Source: Escherichia phage BEU50
Length of the DNA stretch: 64,000 bases
Reading direction: 5' to 3' (one strand)
Sequence record: OM632671.1
The notes beneath the pieces were generated by a model. The model did not search any database, was not told the origin of the DNA, and saw only the letters and a list, made by a program, of their open reading frames with translations. A program made the position numbers and the translations under genes. Numbering within the stretch: position 1 is the stretch's first letter; each line of letters opens with the position of its first letter. Of the stretch, positions 5,855 through 58,575 are shown in pieces.

Positions 5855-6217
5855 ATGAAAGCATATCAAATTCTTGAAGGTGCACATAAAGGCACTATTT
5901 ATTTTGAAGACAGTACTCAAGCCCGGATTATTGTCTCTAAGACTTTTAAAGAAGACGCTATTGTAGACCCGGAAATTTTCTACGGTTTGCATGCTCGTGA
6001 AATTGAAATTGAACATCAACCTAAAGTTAAAATTGAAGGTGGTCAACACCTGAACGTTAACGTTCTGCGTCGTGAAACTCTGGAAGATGCAGTTAAGCAT
6101 CCGGAAAAATATCCGCAGCTGACCATCCGTGTATCCGGATATGCAGTTCGCTTTAACTCTCTGACTCCGGAACAGCAGCGCGACGTTATCGCTCGTACCT
6201 TTACTGAGAGTCTATAA
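5855..6217 (+). CDS. autonomous glycyl radical cofactor (GrcA/YfiD-like)
   Basis: C-terminal [59 protein letters not shown] with RVSGY glycyl-radical motif. Confidence 0.85.
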
Positions 6218-6441
6218 TGGCTAAATTGATTATAGAAGGGTCTGAAGATGTTTTAAAATGTTTTGCCGCCTGGTTTAGTTGCTCAGGCGAGCAATCATTC
6301 ATTGAAGCATTTAGAATGGGTGATATTACTGGAAACTATCCGACAACTGATATCACTGTACATGGATATGGTATTAATGAGCCTATCCAATTGGTCGAAT
6401 ATGACCTTGCCACCGATGAGGAAATTCCTTATGTCGATTGA
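6217..6441 (+). CDS. hypothetical protein (74 aa)
   Basis: ORF track. Confidence 0.45.
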   Translation: MAKLIIEGSEDVLKCFAAWFSCSGEQSFIEAFRMGDITGNYPTTDITVHGYGINEPIQLVEYDLATDEEIPYVD

Positions 6442-6697
6442 AGACATCAAAGGCTACAAGCCGCATACCGATGATAAAATCGGTAAAGTGAACGCTATTA
6501 AAGATGCTGAAGTCCGTCTTGGATTGATGTTTGATGCTCTGATTGAAGAAGCATATATCTTGAAAGAAAATGAAACAGAGCAACAAACCAAAGAAGATAT
6601 GGATGCAGTGCAGGCTCTTAAGTATGCTAAGCAACATCTAAAAGAAGCCAGCATGTGGGCATGTCGTGCGGTATTTCGACCTGAGGAAAAATACTAA
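6431..6697 (+). CDS. hypothetical protein (88 aa)
   Basis: Start moved to ATG 6431, which overlaps the upstream stop. Confidence 0.45.
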   Translation: MSIEDIKGYKPHTDDKIGKVNAIKDAEVRLGLMFDALIEEAYILKENETEQQTKEDMDAVQALKYAKQHLKEASMWACRAVFRPEEKY

Positions 6698-6912
6698 TGG
6701 CTTCTACTATTACTGGGTTATTGGACTTCCAAGAAAAGGTCAACAAAATTTGTAGTGAATACTTAAAGTATCTTGAAGAAGACCTTGAAGATTGTAAGGA
6801 AGAAGGCGAAGAAGACTATGCTGACCAGCGTCGCCGCCAAATCGAAGAGATGAGGCATTTCGCCAATATGGTATCTAAAGAATCTTGGGCTTTAACTCCG
6901 TTTTATCAATAA
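6697..6912 (+). CDS. hypothetical acidic protein (71 aa)
   Basis: TAATG overlap. Confidence 0.45.
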   Translation: MASTITGLLDFQEKVNKICSEYLKYLEEDLEDCKEEGEEDYADQRRRQIEEMRHFANMVSKESWALTPFYQ

Positions 6913-6916
6913 AGTA

Positions 6917-6967
6917 GTTTACTTCTCCTCTAGTTGTGTTACTATAGACCTGTCAACTAGAGGAGAA
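6917..6967 (+). promoter_or_regulatory. early promoter inside 14-bp inverted repeat (upstream of regB)
   Basis: GTTTAC 6917-6922; arms TTCTCCTCTAGTTG (6923-6936) and CAACTAGAGGAGAA (6954-6967). Confidence 0.55.
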
Positions 6968-6973
6968 ATCAAA

Positions 6974-7432
6974 ATGACTATCAATTCGGAAGTTTTTATC
7001 CGCCGTAATAAACTCCGTCGAATCTTTGAAACGGAGTTCCGCAAAATAAATGCCAGTATAAAAGACGCTGCAAAGTCTCTTGGACTACCAGGCTTTCATA
7101 TCAAGTATTCTCAACATCTCTTAGATCGTGCTATCCAGAGAGAAATAGATGAGAATTACGTTTTTGAATTATTTCGTAAAGTAAAAAATCATGTTAAAGA
7201 AGTTGCAGAATTTTTATCAATGCCGGCACGTCCAGATGTTGATGAAGATTTTGTCGAAGGTGTCGAATATCGCCCGGGCCGTTTAGAAATAACTGATGGA
7301 AATCTTTGGTTGGGACTTACAGTTTGTCGCGAAAATCCGGCATTCAAAATGAAGACTCTTCAATGCAGAATGGCTATTATTAACAGTAAACGACTACCAG
7401 GAAAAGCTTCTAAAGCAGTGATTAAAATCTAG
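6974..7432 (+). CDS. regB: RegB site-specific endoribonuclease
   Basis: MTINSEVFIRRNKLRR...YSQHLLDRAIQREIDE matches T4 RegB. Confidence 0.9.
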   Translation: MTINSEVFIRRNKLRRIFETEFRKINASIKDAAKSLGLPGFHIKYSQHLLDRAIQREIDENYVFELFRKVKNHVKEVAEFLSMPARPDVDEDFVEGVEYRPGRLEITDGNLWLGLTVCRENPAFKMKTLQCRMAIINSKRLPGKASKAVIKI

Positions 7433-7440
7433 AGGTAAAC

Positions 7441-7983
7441 ATGAGAAAAGCACTACTCGCTGGTCTATTTGCTCTTTCATTATCAGCACATAGCTCCGAG
7501 CATACTTTTAGTAATGTCCAACTCGATAACTTGAATTATGCTTATCAGTTTGGGGAACAGTTTTCTAAGGACGGAAAATTTAAAACGCATGAAAATATGC
7601 ATAAGAAAGGACTTGGATACATAATGGCCGCAATACTATGGCAGGAATCATCTGCCGGTATTAATCTTAAAGATAAGAAAGGTCACCATGCGTATGGAAT
7701 GTTCCAAAATTATCTACCAACAATGAGGGCAAGAATTAACCAGCTTGGTTATAATATGACTGATGCCCAAATTAAGAAAATGCTATCTAAGCGGTCTAAT
7801 TCAACCAGATGGGCTTATATCGAATTTTCTTATTGGTTAAATATACATAACGGGGATATAAGAAAAGCTATATCCTCATATAATGCGGGATGGAAGACAA
7901 GCGCTGGAAGTAAATATGCTTCTGAAGTCCTAGAAAAGGCTAATTACCTTAAATCAAATAAACTACTGGAAATAAAAGAATGA
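7441..7983 (+). CDS. secreted lytic-transglycosylase-like protein (SLT domain)
   Basis: Signal peptide; ILWQESS catalytic-Glu context and YNAG motif. Confidence 0.55.
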   Translation: MRKALLAGLFALSLSAHSSEHTFSNVQLDNLNYAYQFGEQFSKDGKFKTHENMHKKGLGYIMAAILWQESSAGINLKDKKGHHAYGMFQNYLPTMRARINQLGYNMTDAQIKKMLSKRSNSTRWAYIEFSYWLNIHNGDIRKAISSYNAGWKTSAGSKYASEVLEKANYLKSNKLLEIKE

Positions 7984-8327
7984 CCAAAATGTTGGCTTTA
8001 ATAGTTGGCTTGGTTTCATTTAACGCTCTTGCTAATACTACATATACTGATGTAACGGAGTATACAAACAGAACGGCGTCTGATTATTGTGGTAAAAGTC
8101 AAGAGTGTAAAGTAGATTTTTCACAAAAATTGTTATATGCGTATAAAGACGGAGAAAAAGATGGGGCGTCTAGTAGGTTCAAGGCGTCTACCTTAATTAA
8201 AAGATACTATAAAAAATGGCAAATATTAGAATGCTCTGTGGCGGAACCTAAAGATAAGGCAGCATGCAATTCTATGGTGGACCGTCTAGTTGACTCTTAT
8301 ACTAGAGGACTTGCAGCAAGTGATTAA
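7980..8327 (+). CDS. secreted hypothetical protein (115 aa)
   Basis: N-terminal signal-peptide-like segment, several Cys. Confidence 0.5.
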   Translation: MTKMLALIVGLVSFNALANTTYTDVTEYTNRTASDYCGKSQECKVDFSQKLLYAYKDGEKDGASSRFKASTLIKRYYKKWQILECSVAEPKDKAACNSMVDRLVDSYTRGLAASD

Positions 8328-8784
8328 AAACTATATCAAGGGCGATATTGTCGCCCTGTTTTCTAAAGGTAATAATATTGCTCATGGGTGTAATTGTTTT
8401 CATACAATGGGCGCCGGTGTAGCAGGCCAATTAGCAAAGGCTTATCCAAAAATTCTGGAAGCCGATAAACTTCAAACCGAATTCGGAGACAAGTCTAAAC
8501 TCGGGACTTATTCGGTTTATGAAAAATATTTTAAGACCCATAAAGCTTATTGCTTTAATCTTTATACACAGTTTGAGCCGGGACCTAATTTTGAGTACTC
8601 TGCTTTAATGAATTGTATAATAGAATTAAATGAATTCGGAAAGAATAAGATAATAAAGCCTGTAATTTATATGCCTAGAATTGGTGCAGGTATTGGTGGT
8701 GGAAACTGGGATATCATCGAAGAGATTTTAGATACGTATTCCACTAAACTAGAAATTGTGATTGTTGATTGGGAACCTAAATGA
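8320..8784 (+). CDS. macrodomain-like protein (ADP-ribose binding/hydrolase fold)
   Basis: IAHGCNCFHTMGAGVAGQL and IGAGIGGGNW resemble macrodomain motifs; no in-frame ATG before the motif, GTG 8320 proposed. Confidence 0.55.
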   Translation: MIKNYIKGDIVALFSKGNNIAHGCNCFHTMGAGVAGQLAKAYPKILEADKLQTEFGDKSKLGTYSVYEKYFKTHKAYCFNLYTQFEPGPNFEYSALMNCIIELNEFGKNKIIKPVIYMPRIGAGIGGGNWDIIEEILDTYSTKLEIVIVDWEPK

Positions 8785-8963
8785 AATTAACTAAAGAAGA
8801 GAAAGCTAAATTGTTCGAACTTATCCATGACCTATTGGATGAGCAAGCAGCCACCAATGCGTATGATGAATATGCTCCTTTAACAGATGAAGAATATCAA
8901 GCATTGATGGAATCATTTGACAGGAAAGAACAAGAACTCATTGACTACGTGAATTCACTATAA
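8781..8963 (+). CDS. hypothetical protein (60 aa)
   Basis: ATGA overlap. Confidence 0.4.
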   Translation: MKLTKEEKAKLFELIHDLLDEQAATNAYDEYAPLTDEEYQALMESFDRKEQELIDYVNSL

Positions 8964-8972
8964 GGGGCTCTT

Positions 8973-9554
8973 ATGGCTAGTTTAATTTTTACATATGCCG
9001 CTATGAACGCCGGTAAGTCTGCTTCATTACTTACTGCCGCACATAACTATAAAGAACGTGGCATGGGTGTATTAGTTCTTAAACCGGCTATTGATACTCG
9101 TGATTCAAAAGGTGAAATAGTCTCTCGTATTGGTATTCGTCAGGATGCCAATATAATTACAAAAGACATGGATATCTTTGAATTCTATAAATGGGCTGCA
9201 GCACAAAAGGATATTCACTGTGTATTTGTTGACGAAGCTCAGTTCTTAACTACTGAAAAGGTGTATCAACTTAGTCGTATTGTTGACGTATACAATGTGC
9301 CGGTAATGGCATATGGACTACGAACAGATTTTAAAGGTAATCTATTTGAAGGTTCTCAAGCATTAATGGCTATTGCCGATAAGCTTGTTGAACTTAAAGG
9401 TGTCTGTCATTGTGGTAAAAAGGCCACAATGGTAGCTAGAGTCACGGAAGACGGACTTCCAATTACAGATGGCAGTCAAATTGAAATTGGTGATACTGAT
9501 AGATATGTGTCATTATGCCGGAAGCATTGGAATGATTTGACAGGATTGTTATAA
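8973..9554 (+). CDS. tk: thymidine kinase
   Basis: NAGKSASLL P-loop, VDEAQFL, C-terminal Zn-ribbon cysteines. Confidence 0.95.
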   Translation: MASLIFTYAAMNAGKSASLLTAAHNYKERGMGVLVLKPAIDTRDSKGEIVSRIGIRQDANIITKDMDIFEFYKWAAAQKDIHCVFVDEAQFLTTEKVYQLSRIVDVYNVPVMAYGLRTDFKGNLFEGSQALMAIADKLVELKGVCHCGKKATMVARVTEDGLPITDGSQIEIGDTDRYVSLCRKHWNDLTGLL

Positions 9555-9557
9555 ATA
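9550..9557 (+). promoter_or_regulatory. late promoter core TATAAATA
   Basis: Exact TATAAATA octamer. Confidence 0.45.
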
Positions 9558-9581
9558 CTAATATCTAACCAAGAGGTATAT

Positions 9582-9794
9582 ATGCAGCAATTAAACGAAA
9601 GACAACTTCGTAATCTTACTGTAACCCAATTGGATGAAATCCGAAGAGAATTAGGACATTCTATTTCTCATTTAAACGAGGATATCCGTCAAACTGGTTC
9701 TAAAGCTGATTATACACGCAAGCGCAAGCTGGAAAAATACCTCACAGATGTTAAGGCCGTCCAAAGGCGAAAAATAAATACTGGCCAAAATTAA
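9582..9794 (+). CDS. hypothetical basic protein (70 aa)
   Basis: ATG after AAGAGG. Confidence 0.45.
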
Positions 9795-9806
9795 CAGGAG
9801 GCCTAT

Positions 9807-10109
9807 ATGGCCTTAAGAGCGATAGCTGTCATGGCGATGCTGGGGTTTTTTGCAGCAACAACTCCTATCGTTGGTACTGCATATGTTGACCCATATTTTG
9901 ATAACTTTATGGAATCAGGGATTAAAAACGTATATACTTTGTTTGAAATTCAAAATGTCGAGAATTCTGAAAAATTCTATAAGTATATGGCAAAGCATTA
10001 CAAAAATAGCCCCTGTGATGATGCATTTGAATGTCACGAACAAGGCATAAAAACTGCCAGACAATTTGCCGAGTTCATGAAAATAAAATTAGAGCCTACA
10101 TCTATCTAA
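9807..10109 (+). CDS. rI: lysis-inhibition regulator rI
   Basis: Signal-anchor N-terminus; DPxFDxFMESGI...KYM similarity to T4 RI; adjacent to tk. Confidence 0.8.
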   Translation: MALRAIAVMAMLGFFAATTPIVGTAYVDPYFDNFMESGIKNVYTLFEIQNVENSEKFYKYMAKHYKNSPCDDAFECHEQGIKTARQFAEFMKIKLEPTSI

Positions 10110-10115
10110 TTTACT

Positions 10116-10143
10116 AGCCCCTTCCGAAAGGTTGGGGCTTTTT
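10116..10143 (+). terminator. rho-independent terminator
   Basis: AGCCCC...GGGGCT hairpin followed by TTTTT. Confidence 0.6.
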
Positions 10144-10154
10144 GGCATCTATCA

Positions 10155-10205
10155 GTTTACTTCTCCTCAGGTTGTGTTATAGTAAACCTTACTTACTAGA
10201 GGAGA
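10155..10205 (+). promoter_or_regulatory. early promoter with imperfect inverted repeat
   Basis: GTTTAC 10155-10160, TATAGT 10178-10183. Confidence 0.45.
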
Positions 10206-52267: not shown

Positions 52268-52918
52268 ATGATTTATTATATGCACAAAAATGCGCCATTT
52301 AAATATGGTAAATTTCCTAATGCACAATGTTATAATATAACGCCGAATGAAAATAATAACGGATACCATCTCGGTGTAATTTTTGTAATTGTTAAAGATA
52401 ACGAAATCGTTGCCTGGGCAGATTTTAAAGGTACAACATATGACGTTAATCCTGTGCCTTTCACATATTACAATATAATGGATTTGGCATATGATTATAA
52501 TTGGTTTAATCATGACACGTTGGCTCATATTGAAGGTGTAGGATTTGACATCTCTTATTCTAGTTATTCATTATGTCCTATGAGCCGAGCTCACGGTAAA
52601 GATGCATCATATCTTTCAATTCGGAAACGTGTAAACTTCAAACGTAGTACAGAGTATGTTGGTGGACTCTTTGTTAAAGATAATAAAATAACCCGTATTA
52701 GTTATCCTCTAAGTGTAGGCCAAAAAGATGTTGATGTTGATTTGGACTTAACTGAAAATAACATTAATCGTATTGCTTCTGTATATTTTGATATCGATGA
52801 AAAAATTGTAGTGTGTGGATATGAATTACCACCTGAAGAAAAGGCTGAAGCAATTGAAGTCGAATTAGAAATTTCTGTTGATGACCAAATATTTAATGCA
52901 TTTATGAATCGAGGTTAA
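52268..52918 (+). CDS. hypothetical protein (216 aa)
   Basis: ATG after AGGTGA; ORF-track start is GTG. Confidence 0.5.
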   Translation: MIYYMHKNAPFKYGKFPNAQCYNITPNENNNGYHLGVIFVIVKDNEIVAWADFKGTTYDVNPVPFTYYNIMDLAYDYNWFNHDTLAHIEGVGFDISYSSYSLCPMSRAHGKDASYLSIRKRVNFKRSTEYVGGLFVKDNKITRISYPLSVGQKDVDVDLDLTENNINRIASVYFDIDEKIVVCGYELPPEEKAEAIEVELEISVDDQIFNAFMNRG

Positions 52919-57327: not shown

Positions 57328-57909
57328 ATGACATGTCAATCTGAACTTCAAGAACGTGAATACCTAACAAATCTGATTGATAGCAAATTCACCCGCCAAG
57401 AACAAAACATTCTCTGGGCTTGCACCGATTCTAAGGAAGACCCGGATTTCCACTATGAATTAGACCATCTTGTTCGTAAGCATATGACTTCTACAGTACC
57501 AGTAGAACTCTACCGTGGTGTAACTCCAGAAGAAGTAGAACGTCTTTCCCTTCTTTCTGTTGGATGCCATTGGTCTCCTGGACGAGTAACATCGTTCACA
57601 ACTGATTTCAGTACAGCTCGTCAATTCTCCGGGAGTTGGGAATATCAGACGTACACTATTCTTAGTCTCAGGAATGCTCCATTCATTTTTGATTACTACC
57701 AAAACATGATTAACATTGTACTTGCCGGAAAGAACCCTAAGCATGTTATGGAAGAAACTCGTATCGATGTCCTAGATATGATTGAATCTGAACAAGAGTA
57801 CATGGTCTCAGGCATCTCTCGATTTGAGATTGTGGAAATTGAAGACTTAGAATATGACCCTTTATCTCGATTATACAAAATCATTCATTTGAAAATGTTG
57901 AATTTTTAG
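57328..57909 (+). CDS. ADP-ribosyltransferase, ModB/ModA-like
   Basis: YRG (Arg), STS-like segment and EQEYMV (ExE-like) motifs; paralogous to next gene; between soc and dda. Confidence 0.65.
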   Translation: MTCQSELQEREYLTNLIDSKFTRQEQNILWACTDSKEDPDFHYELDHLVRKHMTSTVPVELYRGVTPEEVERLSLLSVGCHWSPGRVTSFTTDFSTARQFSGSWEYQTYTILSLRNAPFIFDYYQNMINIVLAGKNPKHVMEETRIDVLDMIESEQEYMVSGISRFEIVEIEDLEYDPLSRLYKIIHLKMLNF

Positions 57910-57966: not shown

Positions 57967-58575
57967 ATGTTTATGCCGTATAACGAGTGTGAAATTGAAG
58001 AAATGGTTCGTCGTGCTCAAAACCCCGAATATCAAGATGTATTGCAGTACGAAATTGATAGTCAATTCAACGATAATGAACAAAGCATCCTTTGGCAGTG
58101 TATGGAAAACAAGCCAGACTGTATTCAACAGGAGTTAAGTTCAATCGTTCGTAGAAATTGGACGTCTTCTGTTCCTGAGACAATGTATCGTGGAATCTCT
58201 AAGAAAACTATGGCCACACTTGATGATAAAGGCATTGGTAGTATTATTAAATTTGACAGAGTAATGAGCTTCAGCCCAGTGTTCGGTGTAGCACGTAACT
58301 TTGCTTCGTATAATTTTTACGGAACATTTAATATGTTCTGCATCAAAGATGCACCATTTGCTTTCAACTTCCGTGAACATATGCTTAACATGATTCTGGC
58401 CGCGCCATCTTGCGAGTTCAATGGAGCTTTCCCTGAAGCGACAAGACGGTCTAATGCTAGACTTATATCTGACGAATGTGAATTTATGCTCCCTATAGGG
58501 ACTACACTGCGTGTAGATTCTATTATTCAAGATGGACGTTATACAATCTGGAATCTATCTATTGTCAGTTACTGA
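57967..58575 (+). CDS. ADP-ribosyltransferase, ModA/ModB-like
   Basis: YRGIS, SFSPVFGVA, ECEFMLP motifs; paralogue of the preceding gene. Confidence 0.65.
   Translation: MFMPYNECEIEEMVRRAQNPEYQDVLQYEIDSQFNDNEQSILWQCMENKPDCIQQELSSIVRRNWTSSVPETMYRGISKKTMATLDDKGIGSIIKFDRVMSFSPVFGVARNFASYNFYGTFNMFCIKDAPFAFNFREHMLNMILAAPSCEFNGAFPEATRRSNARLISDECEFMLPIGTTLRVDSIIQDGRYTIWNLSIVSY

Follow-up and report, generated by a model that had tools for sequence, protein, structure and literature searches.

The tk.4/adfM ortholog of Escherichia phage BEU50 encodes a standalone macrodomain protein with a glutamine at the position of the DarG catalytic lysine

Introduction

The DNA analyzed here, hereafter called the window, is a stretch of 64,000 nucleotides from Escherichia phage BEU50 (sequence record OM632671.1). 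An open reading frame at 8320-8784 raises the question of what a macrodomain protein does for a phage. The original prediction, made from the letters of the DNA, had recognized two motifs resembling ADP-ribose-binding signatures and had proposed that the product either reverses or reads the ADP-ribosylation made by the phage's own ModA/ModB-like transferases, or counters host DarT-type toxins.

The second proposal had an answer in print, as the T4 ortholog is required for resistance to DarTG2. When a T4 transposon library was grown on E. coli with DarTG2 (HIDEN-SEQ), only tk.4 scored as a significant hit; T4 with a clean tk.4 knockout became sensitive to DarTG2, and the gene was renamed adfM (bioRxiv 10.1101/2025.11.20.689424). 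According to this November 2025 preprint, it "seems likely" that ADP-ribose is removed from DNA enzymatically. T-even phages have further factors of this kind, namely AdfN (gp30.3), a NADAR enzyme countering DarTG1, and AdfA (gp61.2), another anti-DarT factor (PMC11825919). PhiKZ gp104, likewise named AdfM, strips DarT2-made ADP-ribose from DNA in vitro, and its activity is lowered by the N23A substitution (2026 Cell Reports, PMC13309987). No biochemical assay of Tk.4-type proteins was found in the searched literature.

Results

The gene and its start codon

The coding sequence lies on the plus strand at 8320..8784, with a GTG start and a TGA stop, and encodes a macrodomain protein of 154 aa. 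In the mechanically made list of open reading frames, the same frame opens with a TTG at 8290, counts 164 codons, and ends with the stop at 8784. The GTG at 8320 was preferred as the start since it matches the ATG start of T4 tk.4 codon for codon in the alignment, is preceded by GAGGA at 8305-8309, and gives a 5' end that shares 8 nt with the upstream gene, whose TAA stop is at 8325-8327. The G+C content of the gene (35.3%) is near that of the window (36.9%), so the gene is not compositionally foreign. Both motifs named in the original prediction are present in the product, residues 22-38 being HGCNCFHTMGAGVAGQL and residues 121-130 being IGAGIGGGNW.

A pattern scan picked up a terminator-like hairpin with a U-run inside codons 7-15 (AGGGCGATATTGTCGCCCT GTTTTCT; 8339..8364, plus strand). 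The same sequence is found in T4, fPS-65, and teqhad, and it is gone in Klebsiella phage PWKp18. In the fPS-65 record, the equivalent of this hairpin is annotated as a terminator. Its folding z-score was unremarkable (-1.5). Covariation was sought in the diverged orthologs, where the copies were either identical or absent, and thus speaks neither way. A sigma-70 promoter scan of 6000-10200 returned 13 sites compared to 13.7 expected by chance and is therefore uninformative on a dedicated promoter.

Orthology with T4 Tk.4 and genomic neighborhood

The product of 8320-8784 is the Tequatrovirus ortholog of T4 Tk.4, whose gene is now called adfM (anti-DarT factor, macrodomain). T4 Tk.4 (NP_049723) and the window protein are identical at 131 of 153 residues (86%) in a gapless, full-length alignment, and every invariant residue described below is common to the two. 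The dN/dS between the window gene and T4 tk.4 was 0.075, with a dS of about 1.2, indicating strong purifying selection on the protein. The two alleles differ in some respects. T4 tk.4 starts with ATG, whereas the window ortholog has GTG and a different ribosome-binding region; residue 127 is G in the window protein and K in T4 Tk.4; and tk.4 and tk are separated by one small ORF in the window and by three in T4. The anti-DarTG2 phenotype was demonstrated for the T4 allele alone, to which the window allele is 86% identical.

The window is DNA of a Tequatrovirus, a T4-like phage, and a 2.2-kb segment surrounding the gene shares 99.2% DNA identity with Escherichia phage NRG-P0074 and 98-99% with about 150 further Tequatrovirus genomes from Escherichia, Shigella, and Yersinia. 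In close relatives, the gene carries labels as different as "macro domain protein", "Poa1p-like family protein", "ADP-ribose binding module", "phosphatase", and "hypothetical protein". In T4 itself, tk.4 sits between vs and tk.3 and is annotated as "phosphatase; contains A1pp phosphatase motif".

On the plus strand, the gene is preceded by regB at 6974-7432 (Pfam REGB_T4, E 2e-69), by the SLT-like vs.1 at 7441-7983 (a weak SLT match in Pfam), and by vs at 7980-8327 (PHROG "valyl tRNA synthetase modifier"). On the same strand, it is followed by a small DUF7438 ORF at 8781-8963 (Pfam) and by the thymidine kinase gene tk at 8973-9554, which was taken from the ORF list and is labeled "Thymidine kinase" in near-identical phages. 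The window thus keeps the T4 order regB-vs.1-vs-tk.4-tk, as judged from its ORFs and the T4 annotation, and teqhad and Klebsiella phage PWKp18 share this order. Since regB, vs.1, vs, and tk.4 are same-strand ORFs that abut or overlap, tk.4 probably shares a transcript with the other three. The regB-tk.4 cluster of T4 is said, by Miller et al. 2003, to be among the prereplicative (early/middle) genes. Proteomics of T2 has recorded the Tk.4 protein, and Hfq RIL-seq has yielded chimeras between tk.4 mRNA and the host sRNA ArcZ.

Other ADP-ribosylation genes lie elsewhere in the window. The two ADP-ribosyltransferases of which the original prediction spoke are Mod-family members by PHROG 832 (57328-57909 and 57967-58575, plus strand; E of about 1e-37 each) and are 30-38% identical to T4 ModA/ModB. 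R-S-ExE-like motifs are visible in both ORFs. A homolog of T4 gp61.2 (AdfA), a different anti-DarT factor, is encoded at 52268..52915 on the plus strand (tblastn, 66% identity, E 2e-88). From synteny, the AdfN gene should lie outside the window.

The protein has a macrodomain fold

The supposition that the protein is macrodomain-like held up at the levels of both family profile and fold. Pfam Macro (PF01661) matched with 28.9 bits compared to a gathering score of 22, covering positions 2-117 of the 118 in the profile. The AlphaFold2 model built from the alignment of 69 homologs had a mean pLDDT of 96 and a pTM of 0.91; it shows a three-layer alpha/beta/alpha architecture with a central mixed beta-sheet and is superposable on solved macrodomains. 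The conserved Asn after strand 2 and the two glycine-rich loops are present, and N25, G33, G122, and G124 are invariant in the 69 homologs. A GxG loop is characteristic of the Macro fold (PMC9503650).

The best Foldseek match was human TARG1/OARD1 (PDB 4J5R), with an E value of 2e-10, and the top structural neighbors were all of the TARG1/DarG/Poa1p class. In sequence-only searches of the PDB, BT1257 was closest, followed by Poa1p or TARG1 depending on the query, and DarG ranked lower. From the Pfam Macro score, the AlphaFold2 model, and the Foldseek matches, the protein is a macrodomain that by structure falls in the TARG1/DarG/Poa1p class and not in the MacroD class.

The active site has a glutamine instead of the catalytic lysine

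Conservation was assessed in a set of 69 homologs with 39-96% identity. G23, N25, C26, G33, A35, D49, G62, N80, Y82, and Q84 are invariant in this set, as are P119, I121, G122, G124, and W130; H22, C24, T83, P87, and G88 are nearly invariant. Most of these residues fall in four motifs encoded on the plus strand. The HGCNC motif (codons H22-G-C-N25-C26, 8383..8397) is supported by homolog conservation and by the hhalign alignment with SCO6735 of Streptomyces coelicolor. It is followed by the first glycine-rich loop (GxG) of the ADP-ribose cleft (G31-A-G33-V-A35, 8410..8424), in which G33 and A35 are the invariant positions. The codons of N80-L-Y-T-Q84 (8557..8571) place Q84 at the position of DarG K80, TARG1 K84, and SCO6735 Gln85. 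The second glycine-rich loop, which is the diphosphate-binding one (P119-R-I-G-A-G-I-G-G-G-N-W130, 8674..8709), contains the invariant residues P119, I121, G122, G124, and W130.

In the hhalign alignment with the DarG macrodomain of Thermus aquaticus (probability 97.9%), Q84 fell opposite the catalytic K80, with NLYTQFEP facing NFPTKKHW. In the profile alignment with TARG1 (4J5R), Q84 was paired with K84 and G126 with D125, so the Lys84/Asp125 dyad is missing. The catalytic lysine of DarG and TARG1 is therefore missing from this protein, as both profile alignments put Q84 in its place. N25 occupies the conserved macrodomain Asn position and lies opposite residue 23 of PhiKZ gp104 in BLASTP.

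A counterpart for the glutamine was found in SCO6735, with which hhalign gave a probability of 98.2% and an E value of 4e-14. Here Q84 aligned with Gln85 (N80-L-Y-T-Q84 against N81-M-I-G-Q85), and IAHGCNC aligned with IAHVCND, pairing H22 with His24 and N25 with Asn27. Furthermore, G122 and G124 were paired with Gly126 and Gly128. Pairwise phmmer against SCO6735 misplaced the Gln region, with low posteriors, so the equivalences given here are those of the profile alignments. In SCO6735, Q85A and Q85E abolish the activity on thymidine-ADPr DNA and N27S nearly does so; Asn27 locks the rotamer of Gln85, Gln85 positions the distal ribose, and cleavage by an activated water has been proposed (PMC9411070). 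Of the DNA-positioning lysines of SCO6735, Lys34 faced A32 in the hhalign alignment, and Lys89 fell within a five-residue segment (MKTGS) that is missing in the Tk.4 family.

Since Q84 aligns with Gln85 of the lysine-less SCO6735, an SCO6735-like mechanism can be proposed, and Q84-based chemistry of this kind, rather than DarG-like lysine chemistry, is the best-supported prediction. The putative equivalence of Q84 and SCO6735 Gln85 is what the present analysis itself adds to the published work on tk.4.

Comparison with characterized macrodomains

SCO6735 (PDB 5E3B) is a Lys-less hydrolase of thymidine-ADP-ribose DNA and is the only characterized member of the class that also has no catalytic lysine. 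It is about 24% identical to the window protein, with which it shares the His-x-Cys-Asn motif, the PRIGxG(L/I)xGGxW loop, and the Gln at the lysine position. Both proteins are standalone, of about 150 aa, and without an adjoining DarT. SCO6735, however, is a chromosomal, DNA-damage-inducible bacterial gene with a biochemically proven activity, while that of the window protein is predicted. BT1257 of Bacteroides thetaiotaomicron (PDB 2FG1/2AFC), a structural-genomics protein with no assigned function, is about 26-30% identical to the window protein and has the ANMIGQHG motif in common with SCO6735.

The likeness to DarG (Thermus aquaticus 5M31/5M3E; M. tuberculosis 5M3I) is more distant, with the catalytic K80 of the DarG macrodomain standing against Q84. 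With the NCBIfam antitoxin_DarG model (NF048014), whose cut-off of 250 bits is set for the two-domain DarG, the window protein scored 32.1 bits and PhiKZ gp104 scored 138 bits. With the PADLOC DarG model, the respective scores were 35.5 bits and, for gp104 as the positive control, 132.9 bits. The 154-aa protein spans positions 4-145 of 329 in the PADLOC model and 4-148 of 338 in the NCBIfam model, and, by this coverage, the C-terminal DarT-binding domain of DarG is missing. When the window was searched by tblastn with P. aeruginosa DarT2, only noise was obtained (best E 0.54).

PhiKZ gp104 is, like the window protein, a standalone phage macrodomain, and it counters DarTG2. However, gp104 is of the DarG type, matching M. 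tuberculosis DarG with an E value of 9e-25 and keeping a lysine motif (FPTKDNW), and its BLASTP match to the window protein is just 23 residues long (E 6e-4). The DarG-model scores, the FPTKDNW motif, and this short match indicate that the T4-type and PhiKZ-type AdfM proteins belong to different macrodomain clades. Moreover, import into the phage nucleus has been described for gp104; no such structure is known in T4-like phages.

Yeast Poa1p (PDB 6LFQ-6LFU) is an ADP-ribose-1''-phosphate phosphatase and acts on a small molecule that arises in tRNA splicing. The H-x-C-N-C motif is common to Poa1p and the window protein (HSCNCNGSWGGG against HGCNCFHTMGAG). In the pairwise alignment, the His of HSCNCNGSWG in Poa1p corresponds to H22 and its Ser position corresponds to T29, which is Thr in 47 of the 69 homologs; the Poa1p mutants H23A and S30A were placed via PDB entry names, with an inferred numbering offset. 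Poa1p has a Ser at the Q84 position of this alignment, and its C-terminal half is weakly similar. With BT1257, Poa1p, DarG, and TARG1 as the nearest structures, the fold prediction lands in the macrodomain class expected by the original prediction.

Distribution in phages and bacteria

By tblastn, relatives were found in 2,799 of 50,697 phage records; 2,455 of these records had a coverage of at least 80%. Among the hosts of these phages are Escherichia, Klebsiella, Salmonella, Pseudomonas, Vibrio, Acinetobacter, and Aeromonas, and, going by phage names, Felix-O1-like, Vi1-like, and PAK_P1-like groups as well as jumbo phages are represented.

A scan of one genome per species recovered 369 prokaryotic relatives, the best 80 of which (35-45% identity) were analyzed. 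These 80 are standalone genes of about 150 codons, and 72 of them keep NxYTQ, a motif that played no part in their retrieval. Within 4 kb of the best 80 of 369 relatives, no DarT2 homolog was found by tblastn (best E 0.8). Likewise, the 25 Pfam families seen most often in each set of neighbors of the 80 loci did not include DarT; this listing mostly leaves aside families seen with a single neighbor, so that one isolated DarT gene could escape it, although the tblastn result speaks against this. As no DarT neighbor accompanies the 80 bacterial relatives within 4 kb, an origin of the Tk.4 clade as a detached DarG, or orphan antitoxin, was dropped; the clade does not appear to be simply that. The picture of an orphan DarG antitoxin fits PhiKZ gp104 better than Tk.4.

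Discussion

The anti-DarTG2 role of T4 tk.4 is already published, and the window carries an ordinary conserved gene of T-even phages that already had a name. How its product might confer this resistance is what the present comparison addresses. We consider it likely that the tk.4/adfM ortholog is a standalone macrodomain enzyme that removes DarT2-made thymidine ADP-ribose by Gln-type chemistry. DarT2 of a host DarTG2 system ADP-ribosylates thymidines on single-stranded phage DNA and thereby blocks replication. The glycine-lined cleft of Tk.4/AdfM would bind the thymidine-linked ADP-ribose, and hydrolysis of the thymine-ribose bond would restore normal DNA. Q84, held by N25 and with H22 nearby, would position the distal ribose so that an activated water can cleave. 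We thus infer an enzymatic mode of protection, thymidine-ADP-ribose DNA as the substrate, and a Gln-type mechanism. Human TARG1 is also reported to reverse thymidine-ADPr made by DarT (PMC8501950). Some observations run against the explanation: Lys34 and Lys89 of SCO6735 are not conserved, the DarG-model scores are weak, and DarG ranks below BT1257, Poa1p, and TARG1.

The protein might instead process a small molecule, as a Poa1p-like ADP-ribose-1''-phosphate phosphatase, an O-acetyl-ADP-ribose deacetylase, or a degrader of host TIR/SIR2/RES-derived signals or toxic metabolites. The phosphatase annotation of T4 tk.4 with its A1pp motif, the label "phosphatase" of PHROG 335, and the H-x-C-N-C shared with Poa1p all point this way. 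However, the sole reported T4 phenotype is lost resistance to DarTG2, a DNA-modifying system, and the Ser of Poa1p stands where this clade has Gln, the residue essential for hydrolysis of DNA-ADPr by SCO6735. Moreover, a phosphatase assay on Tk.4-type proteins was not found in the searched literature, and we regard this reading as unlikely. It is also conceivable that protection from DarT2 comes mainly from binding or blocking the toxin, or from shielding ADP-ribosylated DNA, with no hydrolysis. The catalytically dead SCO6735 Q85A, DarG K80A, and TARG1 K84A proteins inhibit DarT in vitro, SCO6735 most strongly (PMC9411070), so protection need not be catalytic, and the classical catalytic Lys is missing here. 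Nevertheless, phage and bacterial relatives of 35-60% identity keep H22, N25, Q84, G122, and G124 with few or no exceptions, and such conservation of cleft and catalytic positions among distant relatives is more to be expected of an enzyme than of a binder specific for the toxin. Since the protein is also without the C-terminal DarT-binding domain of DarG, protection by binding seems to us very unlikely.

A link to the phage's own marks was the other half of the original prediction, and it fared less well than the anti-DarT half. According to this reading, the protein would erase or read the Alt/ModA/ModB protein marks or the RNAylation made by ModB, and would thereby tune host takeover. Two Mod-family ARTs are indeed encoded in the same genome, and, since arginine-specific macrodomains exist, such as Legionella MavL as cited in PMC13036486, the idea is not chemically impossible. 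However, the T4 ARTs target arginine, as with Arg265 of the RNA polymerase alpha subunit for ModA and Arg84 of MazF for Alt (PMC8120803), which leaves reversal or reading of ModA/ModB-like marks unsupported. TARG1/MacroD-type enzymes cleave ester, phosphate, and thymine/uracil linkages, whereas the reversal of arginine marks is the work of DraG/ARH enzymes; the top structural neighbors of the protein were all of the TARG1/DarG/Poa1p class, which acts on ester and base linkages. Furthermore, tk.4 and the mod genes stand 49 kb apart in separate transcription units, relatives of tk.4 occur in 2,799 phage records counted regardless of Mod-type ARTs, and no link between tk.4 and Alt/Mod was found in the searched literature that mentions tk.4. 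This role is therefore judged extremely improbable. No more probability can be given to the reversal of RNA base ADP-ribosylation (e.g., uracil-ADPr) made by a host defense ART, with RNA as a substrate besides or instead of DNA. TARG1, DarG, and especially SCO6735 hydrolyze uracil-ADPr on ssRNA (PMC13036486), and RNA-targeting ART defenses such as CmdTAC exist. Against this, an RNA-uracil ART defense directed at T4-like phages was not found in the searched literature, the adenine marks of CmdT are described as irreversible (PMC13036486), and the sole genetic phenotype is against DarTG2.

Returning to DNA de-ADP-ribosylation as the preferred function, a further proposal concerns the place of the protein among macrodomains. 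Tk.4-type AdfM may form a separate Gln-type (SCO6735/BT1257-like) clade of base-ADP-ribose glycohydrolases that was recruited by phages independently of the DarG-type AdfM of PhiKZ, and that works without the DarG/TARG1 lysine or the DNA-positioning lysines of SCO6735. We put this forward tentatively, as a possibility somewhat short of an even chance. The signature proposed for the clade is HGCNC ... NxYTQ ... PxIGxG(I/L)xGGxW.

The annotation of the locus is largely settled: the tk.4/adfM ortholog belongs to the T-even anti-DarT toolkit, and labels such as "phosphatase" and "hypothetical" hide an anti-defense gene found in about 5% of sequenced phage records. The Gln-type active site and the split between the T4 and PhiKZ AdfM clades are modest residual points of interest. 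The comparison of catalytic sites predicts SCO6735-like glutamine chemistry for T4-type AdfM, not the chemistry of DarG, and the name AdfM is now borne by two distinct macrodomain clades. If the T4-type proteins do form a separate Gln-type clade, their substrates could exceed DarT2 marks, extending for example to uracil-ADPr RNA or to the marks of other toxins, and the single name AdfM would cover up two solutions reached by convergence.

5' region of the macrodomain gene

The macrodomain gene of BEU50 (8320-8784, plus strand), the ortholog of T4 tk.4, starts with GTG at 8320, whereas the corresponding codon is ATG in T4, Yersinia phage fPS-65, teqhad, and Klebsiella phage PWKp18. The 20 nt preceding the start (8300-8319), which include the ribosome-binding site, deviate from the sequence common to T4, fPS-65, and teqhad, and the same stretch of PWKp18 matches neither version. 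Within the gene, codons 7-15 contain an intrinsic-terminator-like hairpin followed by GTTTTCT (8339-8364, plus strand), with an 8-bp stem, five GC pairs, and a 3-nt loop. This hairpin was nucleotide-identical in T4, fPS-65, and teqhad, even though the teqhad macrodomain protein is only 59% identical, and its equivalent is labelled as a terminator in the fPS-65 record. In the PWKp18 ortholog, the hairpin was destroyed. The T4, fPS-65, teqhad, and PWKp18 orthologs offer no covariation, the hairpin being either identical or destroyed in them, and its folding z-score was -1.5.

Interval to tk and tk.4 transcript

A putative T4 middle promoter with a MotA-box-like pattern (TGCTTTA, 13 nt, TAGAAT) was picked up by a single regular-expression match at 8601-8626 on the plus strand. 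It falls inside the macrodomain gene, in its 3' half, and is directed at the DUF7438 ORF and tk. The interval between the macrodomain gene and tk (8781-8972) is occupied by one small ORF (DUF7438, 60 aa), whereas that of T4 carries tk.3, tk.2, and tk.1; many relatives of 98-99% identity have approximately 415 bp extra here, their megablast matches falling in two pieces. For T2, a 2026 Hfq RIL-seq preprint reported chimeras of the tk.4 mRNA, mislabelled there as 'putative thymidine kinase', with the host sRNA ArcZ, and the level of the Tk.4 protein was unchanged in a strain lacking arcZ.

Relationship to other macrodomains and their neighbours

Two phage macrodomains from separate clades have, independently of each other, come to be called AdfM: T4 Tk.4, a Gln-type protein of the SCO6735/BT1257-like kind, and PhiKZ gp104, a true DarG-like macrodomain of the Lys type.

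Among the bacterial and MAG loci around the best 80 of 369 Tk.4-like relatives (L002-L081), recurrent neighbours included Exo_endo_phos nucleases, found 3' of the macrodomain gene in 8 of 76 downstream neighbours; upstream, PALP enzymes (7/64), nicotinate phosphoribosyltransferase (3/64), and NUDIX proteins (2/64) were found, and several upstream ORFs exceeded 1,000 aa. At three loci from Ruegeria genomes (L035:3523-4447, L061:3472-4447, and L062:3444-4447), the start of a Tk.4-like Gln-type macrodomain gene is overlapped by a gene for a NADAR-domain protein, placing two base-ADP-ribose erasers side by side with no DarT nearby. The NADAR genes matched Pfam with E values of about 1e-38, and two of the three also weakly matched Phage_30_3, the AdfN family. 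Since all three genomes belong to one genus, the pairing possibly represents a single evolutionary event.

Other ADP-ribosylation-related genes

Two Mod-family ADP-ribosyltransferases, highly diverged from T4, are encoded on the plus strand. The ORF at 57328-57909 is 38% identical to ModB, and that at 57967-58575 is about 30% identical to ModA and ModB alike; YRG...S-x-[ST]...E-x-E motifs can be discerned in each of the two sequences. Identity to T4 is 67% for srd, which flanks these ORFs, and 86% for the macrodomain. The stretch 52268-52915 (plus strand) encodes a homolog sharing 66% identity with T4 gp61.2 (AdfA, an anti-DarT1 factor). Together with the macrodomain gene, the window therefore contains at least two anti-DarT genes.
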